From positions 1 to 64,000 of the forward strand of contig PRDH01000021.1 in the NCBI GenBank assembly GCA_003345545.1: a DNA stretch of 64,000 bases, given 5' to 3'. Under the pieces are notes generated by a model. It did not search any database. It worked only from the letters and a program-made list of their open reading frames with translations, and had not been told where the DNA came from. How positions within the stretch are numbered: position 1 is the first letter of the stretch; the number at the start of each line of letters is the position of its first letter. Source of the stretch: Candidatus Thorarchaeota archaeon. GTDB lineage: Archaea; Asgardarchaeota; Thorarchaeia; Thorarchaeales; Thorarchaeaceae. A program made the translations under genes and the position numbers. Below are positions 11,065 to 48,740 of the stretch, piece by piece.

Positions 11065-13014
11065 CTACTTCAGCGGTACATGAGGTGAAGACTCCCGAAA
11101 GTTGACGTTGGCAGCATGAGATACATTGTGCCTTCTTCTTAGCCAAGAAGCCACACCCCACGAGGGTAATGTTGATAGTGCTGCCATAAGTCCAAGATTG
11201 GGATAACAGAGTCCGATTATACAGAGCCACATGTAGTAACAACCGACTATGAATGGGCCCCCCAGAACACCCAGACTTAGTAATGGATCTGTTTCCTTAC
11301 GAGACAATTCGTGGCTGATAGAATTAGCACGTGTTGCAATCAAGTAACCAAGATAGATGATTGGTATCCAATAAAGGAACACAATTGCAATGATATTCGG
11401 GAGTAAGTAGCTACTTGGTGCTGGTGTTAGTTGACTCAGGGGTGTCCACCAGAGCGTTGTAAAGAGTGGAACCATGACTGCTCCAGATACACTACTGAAC
11501 GGATCTTCACTTGTATCGAAATTGTAGGTCACCCATGGGAAAAACATTGTAATAAAGTACAACGAAACCGGAAGCAAGTTTGTCCTGAGATTATAGTCCG
11601 TTACAATTCCTGCAAAACTCCTTTTGGCTGCACCATGAATCAGGAGCATGAGCAGTAGTGCAGTTGCCAATATTCCAAGTATCTGTCCCCAATCAAGTAT
11701 GACCCCGAAAGCAGAGAATTGAGAAAAGACAACAGTCACACGGACATTTGAGCTTCCAGCTGTATAGATTCCAAATGCTGCAGTTGCTTGTCTGTAATTG
11801 TAGTGCGCATAGTCAATGAATCGGTGGCCCTCATACACAAGAGGCCTCACATGAATGCCGATACTTGTTCTATTGGGCAGATATAGATACTCTGCATCCT
11901 GAAGAGGATAATCAATCATGTAGTAGGCAACCCCATCTAGAACAGTGACTCTGCTATAAGCAAAGGATGGGTATATGTCAATATACAGCCGTGATGCAGG
12001 AATTCTAATATTGACAAGAATGGATTCATCGGGCCCGACTGAGAAGCTGATATTGATCATGGAATCCAATAGACTATGTCCATGTTTGTAAAACCACCCT
12101 GTTCTTCCCTCATATGTCCCCTCAGCAAGAAAGAGGGTTTCATTGGCGACTCGTGGACCAAATTTGGATGAATCAGTACTATTTCCTGTTCGTGTCAATT
12201 CTACTGCGGGATAGCTGCCCTTTTCTTCGTCGATGTTAGAACCAGCGTGTCTGAGTGATTTCATGTAGGGGTTAAGGAATAGACTCTCTCCATCAGGAGC
12301 TTGAATATCAAACGTGACAGGGAATAGGTTCTCGTTCGAATCAGCTGAGATCACTACATCGCCAATCAAAACTAGTGACTTTTCTGTTGATGCGATCTCT
12401 ACAAGCATTGTAGTTCGGACAATCCATCCAGAACTAAGATTGAATGCTCCACTAAGAGGTGGTTTGCAGACTAAAGTTCCAGACTGACCCTCATCCAAAT
12501 ATGTGCTGTTCTCACCCGCCTCACACCAATTGGGATCGGGCCATGCCCCATAACTGACTCTTAGGCTTGCATTTGCCGAGCCAAGTAGAACTCTGATGTT
12601 TATTGAGAAACTCACCTGAGAATAATTGAACAAAGGCAGAGTAGGGCTTCCGGCAAAACCGATATGTGAGTTGACAATATATCCATCGGGTCGAATACTA
12701 ACACCATCAAGCTCCAGTGTTACACCTTGTGATTCATCGTGGCTCCTGCAAGAGCTCTCGTATAAGATATACCAGTCCGCACCCGGGTCATTGACAGTAC
12801 CATTGTAGACGACTACGCTCGTTCTTTGTGGGTATTCCTCTCTATAGATTGTATATCCTATTGTTCCTTCTATTGAACTTTCATCCCTAGCAATGAAGGC
12901 TGGTTCTAAAGTTCTATGCAGTATTGAGATGACTGGAGCGGTTACAAACATAGTAACGGCGACTAGTACAACTATTTCTTTGAGTCTACGCCCATGTTTC
13001 TCTAGGATTCCCAC
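11065..13014 (-). CDS. Large extracellular-domain polytopic membrane protein
   Basis: Signal/TM, ~400-aa extracellular region with NxS/T sites, ~5 C-terminal TMs; GAGGGTGA SD; more AT-rich than its flanks. Confidence 0.75.
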   Translation of the reverse strand: MGILEKHGRRLKEIVVLVAVTMFVTAPVISILHRTLEPAFIARDESSIEGTIGYTIYREEYPQRTSVVVYNGTVNDPGADWYILYESSCRSHDESQGVTLELDGVSIRPDGYIVNSHIGFAGSPTLPLFNYSQVSFSINIRVLLGSANASLRVSYGAWPDPNWCEAGENSTYLDEGQSGTLVCKPPLSGAFNLSSGWIVRTTMLVEIASTEKSLVLIGDVVISADSNENLFPVTFDIQAPDGESLFLNPYMKSLRHAGSNIDEEKGSYPAVELTRTGNSTDSSKFGPRVANETLFLAEGTYEGRTGWFYKHGHSLLDSMINISFSVGPDESILVNIRIPASRLYIDIYPSFAYSRVTVLDGVAYYMIDYPLQDAEYLYLPNRTSIGIHVRPLVYEGHRFIDYAHYNYRQATAAFGIYTAGSSNVRVTVVFSQFSAFGVILDWGQILGILATALLLMLLIHGAAKRSFAGIVTDYNLRTNLLPVSLYFITMFFPWVTYNFDTSEDPFSSVSGAVMVPLFTTLWWTPLSQLTPAPSSYLLPNIIAIVFLYWIPIIYLGYLIATRANSISHELSRKETDPLLSLGVLGGPFIVGCYYMWLCIIGLCYPNLGLMAALSTLPSWGVASWLRRRHNVSHAANVNFRESSPHVPLK

Positions 13015-13388
13015 TTCACCCTCACGCGAACATACCTGGCCCGCTCGGACTAATTAATACTTGCACTCACCGTTGGGGTTAATGAGGAATCCTTCTTCTT
13101 TCGGATTTCGCTTCAGCAGCACGTAAATGCTGCTTCATATGTCACTGAAGCTTGGATTGAAGTGTCTCTCCTGTTTTATGGGTATTAGAAACCAAGGGAT
13201 TCTATATGATTGAAGCTGCTCCTTATCCAATCATGACTAGCGATAGACTCAAAGATGACCTTCTCGATTGCACGACTGGCTTCTTGGATGATATTGGAGG
13301 ATTCTAAACCCCGCCATTTTGAGGATGATTGGGTTTTGATTTGCTGAAGAAGACTGCCAAGCCCTGCTCTCAACCAAGACAACATTCC

Positions 13389-13991
13389 TCACGGCTTCTC
13401 CCAGAATCCGGCGACTCCTGTCCTTATTCGTGACCCTAGTTGTTTCAGTGCATCAGGAGCATATTCTGGCTTAAGCCATATAAAGAATAGGACAAAGAAG
13501 ATGATGACGATGACTACGGCAGCAATTGCAGGAGCTGCGCCAGCCAGTGTTCCGAGTGAGTCGGCGCTGGTTGTTTCTGTGGTTGATGTTGTACTGGTAG
13601 GCTGCGAATTGGTCGCAGTGGTAGACGTAACAATCAACCATGTAGTGAGGGAGTCTCCCCTACTGCAGAATCCAGTGACAGTAAGATTGTCACCTATGAC
13701 GGTTGAAACACTAAACGTGTCATTCATTCCCCAACTAAATGATTGGTTTTCATAGGATCTGTTCAGCAGGGAAACGCCATTCTTCTGAATCTCAATGGTT
13801 TCAATGTGGTGCGTCTTAGTATTTACGACAGAGTGTGAAACGTTCACCGAAAGGACCTGTGAACCAAAATCATAGACAAGTAGCATATTGGACGGATTTG
13901 TGGCGGCGCCGAGTGGAATATTGGCAAGACCTGTCAGTATCGTGAGTGCGATGACTACAGCTATACCCGCAATCTGCTTCTTAGAACTCAT
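13389..13991 (-). CDS. Secreted Ig-like protein with Thr/Ser linker and TM anchor
   Basis: Signal peptide, beta domain (SH..THHIE..GDNLTVTGFC), TST linker, TM; the frame continues past an in-frame TGA. Confidence 0.7.
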   Translation of the reverse strand: MSSKKQIAGIAVVIALTILTGLANIPLGAATNPSNMLLVYDFGSQVLSVNVSHSVVNTKTHHIETIEIQKNGVSLLNRSYENQSFSWGMNDTFSVSTVIGDNLTVTGFCSRGDSLTTWLIVTSTTATNSQPTSTTSTTETTSADSLGTLAGAAPAIAAVVIVIIFFVLFFIWLKPEYAPDALKQLGSRIRTGVAGFWEKP

Positions 13992-14170
13992 ACCAATTCA
14001 CGTTGTGATAGTTGATGCTATGATATAATAAGCGTATTTTGGCCAGCTATTTGGGCCGTGCAGGCTTGACTCTCTTCTCTGGGCGAGAACGAATATGCTC
14101 CTTGACTCAACTCAGAAAGATGATGCATAAGGCGTCCTTTCGCCTGAAACGACATACAGGGCCTGCGAAC

Positions 14171-47289: not shown

Positions 47290-47694
47290 TTACTCTTTCT
47301 TAGCCCGTAGTTCATTCTCTTTAATTCTTGCCTTGACAATTCTTGTCACGAGTTCAGCGGGAAGTGGCCTTTCGGTTGAGAATTGGATGGTTGTTCCAGA
47401 CGTACGATAGGGCTTGAGTTCGTTGCTAAAGCTTCTCAAGGTCGGTTCACTCACTACAATGAGACTGCAATGGTTCGTGAATGCTGCAAAGTGGACCAAT
47501 GGCCCGTGATACTTGTAGGTTGGAATTCGGTAGCTAATGACTTCATCAGCTTTCGGCGCGGCAGCTTTGATCACATTGCGAAGCTCTTCAAGAACGGCTC
47601 TTACAGCTTGAGGTAGTGGTTCAAGGTAGTCGTCCACAGTTTCGACCAATGTGCCTTTCTTGGTTGCTTCTCGTTTAGATACAGTTCTCTTCAT
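47290..47694 (-). CDS. DUF1801/YdhG-like protein
   Basis: TVDDYL, EVISYRIPTY, HFAAF..H, GTTIQF....PLP.ELV. Confidence 0.88.
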   Translation of the reverse strand: MKRTVSKREATKKGTLVETVDDYLEPLPQAVRAVLEELRNVIKAAAPKADEVISYRIPTYKYHGPLVHFAAFTNHCSLIVVSEPTLRSFSNELKPYRTSGTTIQFSTERPLPAELVTRIVKARIKENELRAKKE

Positions 47695-47720
47695 TCGCTC
47701 ATCCCCGTGCGTTTCTTGCT

Positions 47721-48740
47721 TCATGCTTTTCCTCTCATTCTATCCTGATAGTAGATGTTCGGCTCGTACGTGGGTGGCCATTGGGGCGCGTTATCCAATA
47801 CTTCCTCAATCTGTTCCAGAACGTCCGTTGAGAGTTCCACGTTGGATGCTGCTGCGCTCTCAAGCACATGCTCAGGTCTTGTTGCTCCGGTTATCGCTGC
47901 GGAAACCTCGGGCCTTCTCAGAATCCATGCCAATGCCAGCTGCCCTGTAGTGATGCCAAGGGATTTAGCGATCTCTCCCAGCCTTCTCACCTTGGACAGA
48001 TTCTCTTCTGTGAGCAATTCCTTCATGTCCTCTGATTTCGAGCCCCTGCTTCCATCAGGGATGCCATCGTTGTATTTTCCAGTGAGAAGCCCCTGTGCAA
48101 GAGGACTCCAAACGGTGAGGCCCATACCATGAGTTCTGACGATATGCATAATCTCGAGCTCGATATGCCTTGAGAACATGTTGTACATTGGCTGCTCCAC
48201 AATTGGTCTATGGACATGCATCTCCTTTGCCACAGCCTGAACACGTTCGAGTTGAGCCGCAGTCCAGACAGAGGTACCCCAGTAAAGCACTTTGCCTGTC
48301 CTGACCAGGCCATCGAGGGTTTCCACGGTCTCTCTGACAGGCGTGAGATGGTCGTACCTGTGAAGGAAGTAAATATCGAGGTAGTCAATATTGAGTCGGT
48401 TGAGAGTGCCTTCAATGGCACGGGTGATGTTCTTCCGGCTATTACCCCAAGCATTGATGTCTTTACTCATCGGCCAGAACACCTTGCTTGAGATGACAAG
48501 GTTTTTCCTGTCGACAGTCTCCTCGGCAAGCCATTCGCCAATGACCTGCTCGGCTCTTCCTCCAGCGTAGATCTCGGCGCAGTCGATGAAGTTTATACCC
48601 TGTTCCACTGCTGTATTCATACATTCCTTGGCAACCCGGTCCTCGACAGTACCGCCATAGGTCAACCAAGAGCCAAGGGAGATCTCACTGATTTTTAATC
48701 CGCTTTTTCCAACTCGTCTGTACCGCATAGGCTTCCCCAT
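47721..48740 (-). CDS. Aldo/keto reductase (Kv-beta-like)
   Basis: GSWLTYG, DCAEIY, SSKVFW, HRYD, WSPLAQGLLTGKY. Confidence 0.95.
   Translation of the reverse strand: MGKPMRYRRVGKSGLKISEISLGSWLTYGGTVEDRVAKECMNTAVEQGINFIDCAEIYAGGRAEQVIGEWLAEETVDRKNLVISSKVFWPMSKDINAWGNSRKNITRAIEGTLNRLNIDYLDIYFLHRYDHLTPVRETVETLDGLVRTGKVLYWGTSVWTAAQLERVQAVAKEMHVHRPIVEQPMYNMFSRHIELEIMHIVRTHGMGLTVWSPLAQGLLTGKYNDGIPDGSRGSKSEDMKELLTEENLSKVRRLGEIAKSLGITTGQLALAWILRRPEVSAAITGATRPEHVLESAAASNVELSTDVLEQIEEVLDNAPQWPPTYEPNIYYQDRMRGKA

Follow-up and report, generated by a model that had tools for sequence, protein, structure and literature searches.

How do accessory genes come to be queued behind the ends of conserved genes when no integrase is found beside them? 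The question is raised by a stretch of 64,000 nucleotides from Candidatus Thorarchaeota archaeon (contig PRDH01000021.1 of GenBank assembly GCA_003345545.1, positions 1 to 64,000 of the forward strand), which we call the window. It belongs to contig C21 of a metagenome-assembled genome (MAG), here G000, of 2.69 Mb in 82 contigs, which is 93% complete. The Thorarchaeota are Asgard archaea, the closest known relatives of eukaryotes. The initial annotation, made from the sequence alone, had described accessory genes placed behind anchor genes and followed by a degenerate copy of the anchor's 3' end. We find that the 3' ends (tails) of two anchors, etfA and rps19, are insertion hotspots across the genus, where small gene cassettes are bounded by truncated direct copies of the tail, which we call relics.

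We named the genes in the studied range using Pfam and aligned the 3' ends of the anchors with the 6 kb downstream, using upstream DNA and shuffled sequences as controls. At the protein level, each anchor was tested against 200 shuffles, and a position-restricted nucleotide test scanned only the 150 nt around each passenger stop. Profiles made from genus-wide tails and relics were run on the window with nhmmer. EtfA was searched in 30 relatives, and the etfA neighbourhoods of 14 genomes were compared; the tails of rps19, of the TPR gene, and of the aldo/keto reductase gene were searched in 25 congeners. All the genomes compared are MAGs, 71-99% complete.

The window carries three etfA relics on the strand of the gene (relics a, 1, and 2 in Table 1). 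The genus profile matches at 20212-20340 (E 1e-14), 21605-21685 (E 1e-8), and 20091-20164 (E 1e-4). Up to four extra copies had been proposed, but the profile detects nothing beyond 22350 that could be the fourth. The local alignment of relic 1 with the etfA tail scores 81, against a maximum of 28 in shuffled sequences, with 85% identity over 65 nt. Its hairpin has a stem of 10 bp and a T-rich tail and is the best-formed example of a type that we call H (AGATAGAGG-N-CCTCTATCT plus the T-rich tail), which is nearly confined, genome-wide, to positions 19546, 20252, and 21644. The first of these overlaps the etfA stop and has a terminator-like score. The units between the relics differ from those of G001, the relative whose EtfA is 96% identical in amino acids. 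At the position of cassette 1, G001 has another unit, with a 470-aa gene on the opposite strand. The Kelch cassette is an insertion relative to G001, whose homology picks up again right after the new hairpin. This cassette encodes a Kelch beta-propeller with an N-terminal signal or anchor and a C-terminal transmembrane (TM) segment (20473-21618). It is also found in another species (G011, contig C115), where it ends with PEIIEAVKKTHAER, a stop codon, and the hairpin, and where it is 78% identical in nucleotides, versus 72% for etfA. The passengers of the window are mainly membrane or secreted proteins, as first described, with hydrophobic segments in 8 out of 10.

The same anatomy recurs in the genus. 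Extra fragments of the EtfA C-terminus (residues ~347-399) lie 0.7-2 kb past etfA in many congeners, some of them on other contigs, and three are found on contig C115 of G011. In the 14 neighbourhoods compared, nine genomes have one or two etfA relics each, all on the etfA strand. A conserved block is found distal to etfA, with a helix-turn-helix (HTH) regulator, a 257-aa protein, two ABC transporters, a flavodoxin, and endonuclease III. Between etfA and this block lies a hypervariable island of 1-8.5 kb, which is nearly empty in G012. Its units hold one or two genes in either orientation, with a relic after each, and when a unit is inserted the canonical hairpin sits after the distal relic, not after etfA. 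The 5' boundary of the etfA relics is sharp (about codon 346-350, with a subset at 358), and their 3' end runs through the stop into the hairpin. Relics show frameshifts, stop codons, and graded decay. In six arrays with two relics (three of etfA and three of rps19), a hand count found the distal relic less similar to the window tail, used as the query, in 6/6 cases. Even the nearest relatives have different cassettes, and some sites are empty. The repeated insertion of one or two genes behind an anchor, with a displaced tail copy on the distal side, is supported by the arrays, and the relatives do carry the empty sites that the initial annotation had proposed to look for, as well as different passengers.

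Could these repeats be chance similarities or joints between strains in chimeric assemblies? For the arrays as a whole, we find this explanation hardly credible. It does apply to two loci, the TPR and aldo/keto reductase genes discussed below, and one Logan contig breaks just past etfA, as expected at a variable site. This contig (SRR6436091, 4013 nt) is an independent assembly of the locus and shows no difference from the window in the 163 nt compared. It stops ~106 nt past the etfA stop, where the variable island starts, which is expected if strains differ there. The only exact matches to the EtfA protein are the same contig in another assembly and a short Logan contig. Against an artefact stand the strong statistics for etfA and for the alkZ junction (see below), the graded decay, frameshifts, and stops of the relics where chimeras would give sharp joints, and the same pattern in independent MAGs of >15 species and in an independent assembly of the window's contig. 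Moreover, distant etfA loci lack the pattern: among metagenome loci used as a control, a relic was found within 10 kb of etfA in 0/25 distant loci and in 3/3 close ones, the metagenome scan having yielded no more than these three close relatives.

The second anchor, rps19, shows a similar picture. Fragments that hold only the tail (20-40 terminal codons) number 34 and come from 15 of the 25 congeners; they are always co-oriented, with up to seven per contig, and have boundary classes at about 85-100 or 60 nt ahead of the stop. The two copies reported behind rps19 in the window were recovered, and both are weak. Relic B is in register and significant at the protein level only (0/200 shuffles reach it), with p=0.001 in the restricted nucleotide test. 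Relic C ends in ESSPHVPLK and a stop, versus KSSSYVPLK and a stop in rps19. Here, too, the cassettes change places. The 200-aa cassette lies directly behind rps19 in the window, and behind other units and a relic in G001 and G017. Neither G001 nor G017 has the 649-aa cassette; G005 and G007 carry it as the leading unit of the rps19 array, with a relic after it.

Two observations concern the setting of this anchor. The usual archaeal ribosomal-protein operon has rps19 between rpl2 and rpl22. Genus-wide, the sole rps19 gene is not in that place: it adjoins the TPR gene and is divergent from etfBA. In addition, contig C188 of G015 carries seven rps19-tail relics and one etfA-tail relic, all co-oriented, even if in all the genomes seen the two genes lie side by side and diverge. 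A near-identical 25-nt hairpin (CTGCTCAGTCA-N3-TGATTGAGCAG) is found behind the intact etfA of G015, behind an rps19 relic of the same genome, and at a site in G036, and is rare elsewhere. We rejected this X-type hairpin as a general cassette boundary: it has three strict copies in 475 kb of arrays and is unenriched in G000.

Table 1. Positions of the anchors, cassettes, relics, and neighbouring genes in the window, and of the 25-nt hairpin at three other loci
Feature	Position	Strand	Basis or remark
etfB	17558-18349	+	Pfam
etfA anchor (Fer4 + ETF + ETF_alpha)	18352..19551	+	Pfam; orthologues 77-96% aa identity genus-wide
Hairpin overlapping the etfA stop, degenerate H type, 7-bp stem	19546..19569	+	
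Cassette 1 cargo, 174-aa orphan, 4 hydrophobic segments	19574..20098	+	
Relic a, short etfA-tail remnant + hairpin AGATAGGAG..TCTCTATCT, at the cassette 1 stop	20091..20127	+	nhmmer E 1e-4, sequence; foreign type (..AER, then stop)
Relic 1, ~30 decayed etfA-tail codons + stop + best-formed H hairpin	20171..20276	+	Own-type; orthologous relic in G001
Kelch cassette, 1.39-kb insertion relative to G001, directly behind relic 1 and its hairpin	20285..21671	+	
Relic 2, 14-codon etfA-tail remnant (LEIIEAVKMN, then stop) + H hairpin 21644-21667	21598..21669	+	Foreign type (EAVKKIQAER)
204-aa 5-TM gene	21736..22350	+	Common to G001; part of an older shared island, to about 25581
rps19 anchor (archaeal S19, 136 aa)	14171..14581	-	Pfam; genus-wide
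rps19 cassette 1: 200-aa signal + TM protein (13389-13991) and 66-aa ORF (13185-13385)	13185..13991	-	
Relic B, heavily decayed last 25 rps19 codons, internal stop	13111..13185	-	11/25 identical
rps19 cassette 2 cargo, 649-aa membrane protein	11065..13014	-	
Relic C, rps19-tail remnant supplying the last codons and stop of the 649-aa gene	11057..11093	-	nhmmer E 1e-3; foreign type
Insertion between TPR gene and rps19, 632 nt, 111-aa 3-TM ORF (14816-15151)	14668..15299	-	Empty site in G001 and G017
TPR gene	15311-15865	-	Pfam
alkZ	44419-45705	-	Pfam
Direct-repeat copy B: membrane-gene-end relic + functional alkZ 5' end	45558..45679	-	
Insert, 934 nt, PEMT/ICMT-like 4-TM methyltransferase gene (45876-46571) on the opposite strand	45680..46613	+	Missing in G001
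Direct-repeat copy A: end of the 152-aa membrane gene + relic of the alkZ 5' end	46614..46735	-	
152-aa membrane gene	46724-47182	-	Pfam scan of the range
Aldo/keto reductase gene (47721-48740) + DUF1801 gene (47290-47724)	47290..48740	-	No tail relic
25-nt hairpin copies	L027:1936-1960, L051:3269-3293, L052:10942-10966		
aa, amino acids; ORF, open reading frame.

We searched for the phenomenon in the rest of G000 by taking 50 residues from the end, the start, and the middle of each of 2,429 ORFs and comparing them with the genome, after removing paralogues. Relic-type tail matches were found downstream on the same strand in 12 cases, upstream in 4, and on the opposite strand in none; the mid-gene control gave 0 downstream and 1 upstream. 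The enrichment over controls that had been anticipated is therefore real but small. Another array lies on a different contig (C81:66871-80320), where a complete 16S rRNA gene is followed, after about 140 nt, by 12 co-oriented copies of a 15-mer (GCTGTTGAGCCACCC) with a T-tract, spaced 0.3-1.6 kb apart. It is a third anchor array in G000, larger than those of etfA and rps19. Several of the tail matches are inserts with long diverged direct repeats on either side, on contigs C35 (471 nt, 79%), C59 (170 nt, 85%), C47, C5, and C56. In the first, a 2.1-kb insert lies between convergent genes, and the repeats (814-1283 and 2939-3408) cover the tails of both; in the second, the insert is 1.5 kb, again between convergent genes, and the repeats (4991-5160 and 6499-6668) also cover both tails. 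The C35 and C59 inserts look like the same process at other sites, and at the C35 site of G001 the flanks enclose different content.

We also compared the relics of the window with the tails of the genus. Relic a is nearest to the tail of G012 (50/59), and so is relic 2 (47/54, versus 43/64 for the window's own tail). Relic C is nearest to the tail of G014 (36/42), the window's own tail being the worst of 11. Relic 1 is of the own type, and relic B is too decayed to assign. Hence, three of the five relics of the window fit the tails of other species better than that of their host, which suggests that the cassettes travel with a tail copy. A pair of sister species tells a similar story. The etfA bodies of G005 and G011 are 86% identical in nucleotides, and their current tails are only 71% identical. 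The G005 relic is 78% identical to the current tail of G011, versus 67% to its own. The tail alleles KELQAKR (followed by TAA) and KKIQxER (followed by TAG) are swapped between gene and relic in these genomes, with different switch points. Judging from these alignments, the current etfA tail of G005 looks imported and its relic native. The proposal that the units bring a replacement tail thus gains support both from the foreign-type relics and from G005. The switch points differ between the few events available: they are in the middle of the repeat, in the last 45 nt, at the 5' edge, or at the hairpin. Two further indels, at C47 and at the 649-aa cassette, were examined as clean mosaics and rejected, their junctions being complex and away from the relics.

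These data bear on an origin in place. DNA captured at a staggered break, or template switching during repair, may duplicate a target of 60-470 nt, after which the non-functional halves decay; the units would then not be mobile as units. Nearby insertions of an illegitimate kind lack long repeats (the one between the TPR gene and rps19, and the C47 junction, with a repeat of 17 nt), and the divergence of the alkZ repeat, described next, fits such a decay. We nevertheless regard this origin as quite unlikely for the arrays: it leaves unexplained why relics a, 2, and C are nearer to the tails of other species than to the host's, why the Kelch unit and its trailing relic are common to two species at an identity exceeding that of etfA, why two sister species have exchanged tail alleles at gene and relic, and why co-oriented arrays reach 7-12 copies.

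We next consider the junction between the 152-aa membrane gene and alkZ. A copy of ~140 bp had been reported there; we found a direct repeat of 122 nt, 78% identical (alignment score 45, versus 29 for shuffled sequences), which brackets the 934-nt insert. It is not a pure copy of a 3' end, since it takes in the start of alkZ together with the final 12 nt of the membrane gene, and is better described as the duplication of a junction, or of a 5' end. G001 has a single copy of the 122-nt target, whose left half fits the upstream copy A and whose right half fits the downstream copy B, the switch from one type to the other being inside the shared CAGAGGGAC. Such a mosaic, similar to attL and attR, would be expected from recombination with a circle bearing a copy of the target. 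With a difference of 22% between these copies and a neutral divergence of 0.24 from G001 at four-fold sites, the repeat may equally have arisen in place and decayed since roughly the time when the two lineages separated.

Two of the five loci originally proposed did not hold. The supposed copy of the TPR tail is matched by 37/200 shuffles, with p=0.016 in the restricted test (18 nt, uncorrected), and that of the aldo/keto reductase tail by 80/200 shuffles, with p=0.43 and 0.75; neither tail has a relic in the 25 congeners. In the nucleotide alignments of the five anchors, only etfA and the membrane gene/alkZ junction rise above the controls. These are chance-level similarities, and the density implied by five independent loci in one window was overstated, the loci that stand being etfA, rps19, and the membrane gene/alkZ junction. 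The spacer between the TPR gene and rps19 is nonetheless variable: it is about 100 nt long in most genomes and 730 nt here, where the 632-nt insertion has no long flanking repeat. The block of the aldo/keto reductase and DUF1801 genes is syntenic in G001, and DUF1801 is absent in G007; the interval between the reductase and alkZ varies from about 50 nt (G012) up to 5.5 kb. In G001, the closest relative, the orthologue of the reductase (C18:58066-59049) aligns as three separate segments, suggestive of a frameshift in the gene. No tRNAs or Rfam RNAs were detected in the window, and we rejected a tRNA or structured RNA as the true anchor there. Elsewhere in the window, a 1553-aa ORF (38547-43208, minus strand) and a 612-aa ORF (33818-35656, plus strand) have no Pfam family at E<=0.001, and beyond the studied range lies a 109-nt direct repeat (56285-56393 and 56567-56675, 78% identity, 282 nt apart).

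Which enzyme could insert the cassettes? Integrases, transposases, and terminal inverted repeats were absent from the window in the Pfam and inverted-repeat searches, as first stated, and no inverted repeats were found at the ends of the inserts. Tyrosine recombinases (PF00589) have 0 hits in G000 and are absent from the 97%-complete G001; the search was positive in all 14 control genomes, four of them archaea. Serine recombinases (PF00239) gave no hit above threshold in G000 (best 19.5 bits), and RVT_1, Y1_Tnp, and Cas1 were not found there, so that the proposed search for orphan recombinases and reverse transcriptases came out empty at these thresholds. Two TnpB-like genes of G000 are on contigs other than that of the window. 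Regarding transposons, insertion sequences, casposons, and IS200-605 elements, we found no Y1_Tnp, Cas1, or terminal inverted repeats; DDE families were not searched individually. PF00589 is present in 8/26 genomes of the genus, never on the array contigs. The other 18, including genomes that are 93-97% complete, lack it, which means that no recombinase of the XerA type is detectable in them.

An integron-like origin was also considered. No relic unit has paired R'' (RYYYAAC) and R' (GTTRRRY) cores of an attC site, and folding shows only the terminal hairpin, with a stem of 7-10 bp, instead of the long imperfect palindrome of 55-140 nt typical of attC. We therefore rejected the attC reading.

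These searches speak to decayed classical elements or proviruses, which would have targeted the 3' ends of etfA and rps19, accreted in tandem as at tRNA genes, and then lost the integrase and core genes from every unit seen. The layout is that of tandem islands and tycheposons, in which the target 3' end is duplicated and newer elements push older ones outward (bioRxiv 10.1101/2020.12.28.424599), and the stronger decay of distal relics in the hand count agrees with it. Yet the units are mostly 0.6-2.3 kb long, with ordinary cargo. We compared 85 cassette ORFs, from ~25 arrays, with Pfam, and none of the 25 commonest families listed is a recombinase or a viral hallmark. The common ones include MFS, H+-PPase, NosD, TPR, aldo/keto reductase, HTH regulators, DinB, hemerythrin, and nitrilase. 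No array contig in the 26 genomes has PF00589. No viral contig was found with a fragment of the etfA or rps19 tail, even if the collection may simply lack such elements. The sole viral record with an etfA-like start (IMGVR_UViG_3300044932_000025) was rejected as an etfA-adjacent integrase element: it has a distant full-length etfA homologue and no second tail copy, and its integrase is 13 kb away. Altogether, we judge it highly unlikely that the arrays are remnants of such elements.

A recombinase acting in trans deserves more weight, even if we think it rather unlikely. It might be the product of a plasmid or virus missing from the bins, or a member of a family not yet recognisable, and would use the anchor tail and hairpin as an att site, much as satellites depend on an integrative element or cassettes on an integron with its integrase elsewhere. 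Several features fit: the sharp and shared 5' boundaries of the relics and the conserved hairpin at their 3' boundary, the position of the Kelch cassette exactly behind a hairpin, the strict co-orientation of relics and anchor, and the mixed array on contig C188 of G015, with near-identical 25-nt hairpins after both kinds of tail. Tyrosine recombinases do exist in 8/26 congeners, the MAGs are incomplete, and most archaeal integrons consist of attC clusters that lack an integrase, with an enrichment in the Asgard group (PMC9668308). On the other hand, PF00589 is absent from G000, from 18/26 congeners (one of them 97% complete), and from the array contigs, and neither a serine recombinase above threshold nor a Y1 transposase, Cas1, or reverse transcriptase was found. 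The switch points are scattered along the repeat, whose length varies between 60 and 470 nt depending on the locus. No viral contig with an attP-like tail was found in a collection that may simply lack such elements, and attC features are missing.

The scattered switch points, the locus-to-locus differences in repeat length, and the lack of a recombinase favour homologous recombination by the host. We give about an even chance to a model in which this recombination inserts and excises small circles at the ends of conserved genes, as in Campbell-type integration; the circular intermediate, the host recombination as catalyst, and the route of transfer are what we infer from the arrays. The tails of a small number of strongly conserved genes (etfA, rps19, and 16S rRNA) would serve as portable sites of homology. 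A small circle would carry one or two cargo genes and the last 60-160 nt of the anchor, and a single crossover would join it to the tail in the chromosome or to an older relic. The anchor would be kept intact, since the copy on the circle would include its stop codon and terminator-like hairpin. The cargo would then lie directly behind the anchor, and the 5'-truncated tail copy, left distal to the cargo, would decay. Any two tail copies could recombine again, so that a unit would pop out as a circle with one hybrid copy. Such pop-outs would account for the empty sites, the swapping of cassettes between species, the swapped tail alleles, and the inherited boundaries of the relics. In this model, the repeats would be confined to gene ends because of selection for an intact anchor, and exchange across species would work there because the anchors are highly conserved.

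Several observations weigh against this model. The 5' boundaries of the relics fall in 2-3 sharp classes, and many units have a conserved hairpin end, which would fit a site-specific enzyme. The present-day identity of the tails between species, 65-87%, is low for efficient homologous recombination. The mixed array of G015 is not predicted by recombination between homologous tails alone, and the alkZ mosaic, as stated above, is equally compatible with duplication in place. Some indels in the arrays break away from the relics (the insert between the TPR gene and rps19, C47, and the 649-aa cassette), and the arrays are thus also reshaped by illegitimate indels of an ordinary kind. Finally, the data come from MAGs only, and the plasmids and viruses that possibly encode an integrase are usually left unbinned.

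With these points in mind, we put forward tentatively, and with somewhat less confidence than the mechanism itself, that the Thorarchaeota have a recombinase-independent cassette system anchored by homology. One- or two-gene circles would cross species by means of universal docking sites at conserved gene ends (etfA, rps19, and 16S rRNA), relying on host recombination alone, and would make up a functional analogue of the integron lacking an integrase, possibly a main route of accessory genes in this lineage. In any case, accessory genes turn over fast at a few fixed sites in a genus in which 18/26 genomes lack a detected tyrosine recombinase. If the proposal is true, this is a simple and general route of horizontal gene gain, missed by every island finder based on integrases, and the arrays hold a built-in, roughly time-ordered record of acquisitions. 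Those annotating MAGs should expect short 5'-truncated pseudo-copies of etfA, rps19, and the rRNA trailer in the genomes of this group, as well as contig breaks at such sites.

How does this compare with known systems? Full-text searches found no publication that describes cassette arrays of this tail-bounded kind in the Thorarchaeota. Integrated elements of Asgard archaea have been described, namely the integrated mobile genetic elements of Atabeyarchaeia (PMC11529989) and the aloposons and HeimV/HeimM elements (PMC8813620). They are 3-44 kb long and have tyrosine integrases, with a short att motif of 11 nt or a tRNA as the target, or they have giant genes (PMC11529989, PMC8813620). They share with our arrays the phylum-level group and the fixed chromosomal sites, and circular forms were detected for some of them. 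None, however, is a single-gene unit bounded by copies of a protein-gene tail, and we rejected aloposons and the other published Asgard elements as a match: they are unrelated.

The tycheposons of Prochlorococcus have tyrosine recombinases, replication modules, and att sites of ~40 nt (Hackl et al., bioRxiv 10.1101/2020.12.28.424599). As in the arrays, each integration duplicates the 3' end of the target, older units are displaced outward by newer ones, partial copies of the target occur at many points of the island, and the island is flexible while its site is fixed. In contrast with tycheposons, no integrase is found here, whether in the arrays, in the genome, or in 18/26 congeners, and each unit has 1-2 ordinary genes. 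The repeats are also longer (60-160 nt, and <=470 nt elsewhere in the genome), their switch points are scattered, and the anchors are the ends of protein genes or rRNA.

The arrays also resemble integrons, and in particular the attC clusters without an integrase (CALINs) that have been reported in the Asgard group (Ghaly et al. 2022, PMC9668308). In both cases, the cassettes are small, mostly of a single gene, each with a co-oriented repeat ending in a hairpin; their content varies between relatives; the cargo is mainly orphan, membrane, or secreted proteins; and the arrays have no adjacent integrase. Unlike those of integrons, the repeats of our arrays are copies of host gene 3' ends, with no attC site, R''/R' cores, or long bulged stem. 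The genome has no IntI or other PF00589 protein, the cargo can be in either orientation, and the arrays are anchored on an intact conserved gene instead of attI.

Campbell-type integration by a single crossover, or insertion-duplication, is known from laboratory genetics with non-replicating circular plasmids. We found no description in the literature of such integration as a natural and recurrent route of gene gain that forms arrays at the ends of conserved archaeal genes. It predicts the product that we observe, i.e., an intact gene, the insert, and a truncated direct duplicate. It also predicts hybrid repeats, reversibility by pop-out, and viability only if the homology includes the end of the gene. 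In the arrays described here, direct duplicates flank the inserts while the intact gene is kept, and the few events available show hybrid copies with varying crossovers.

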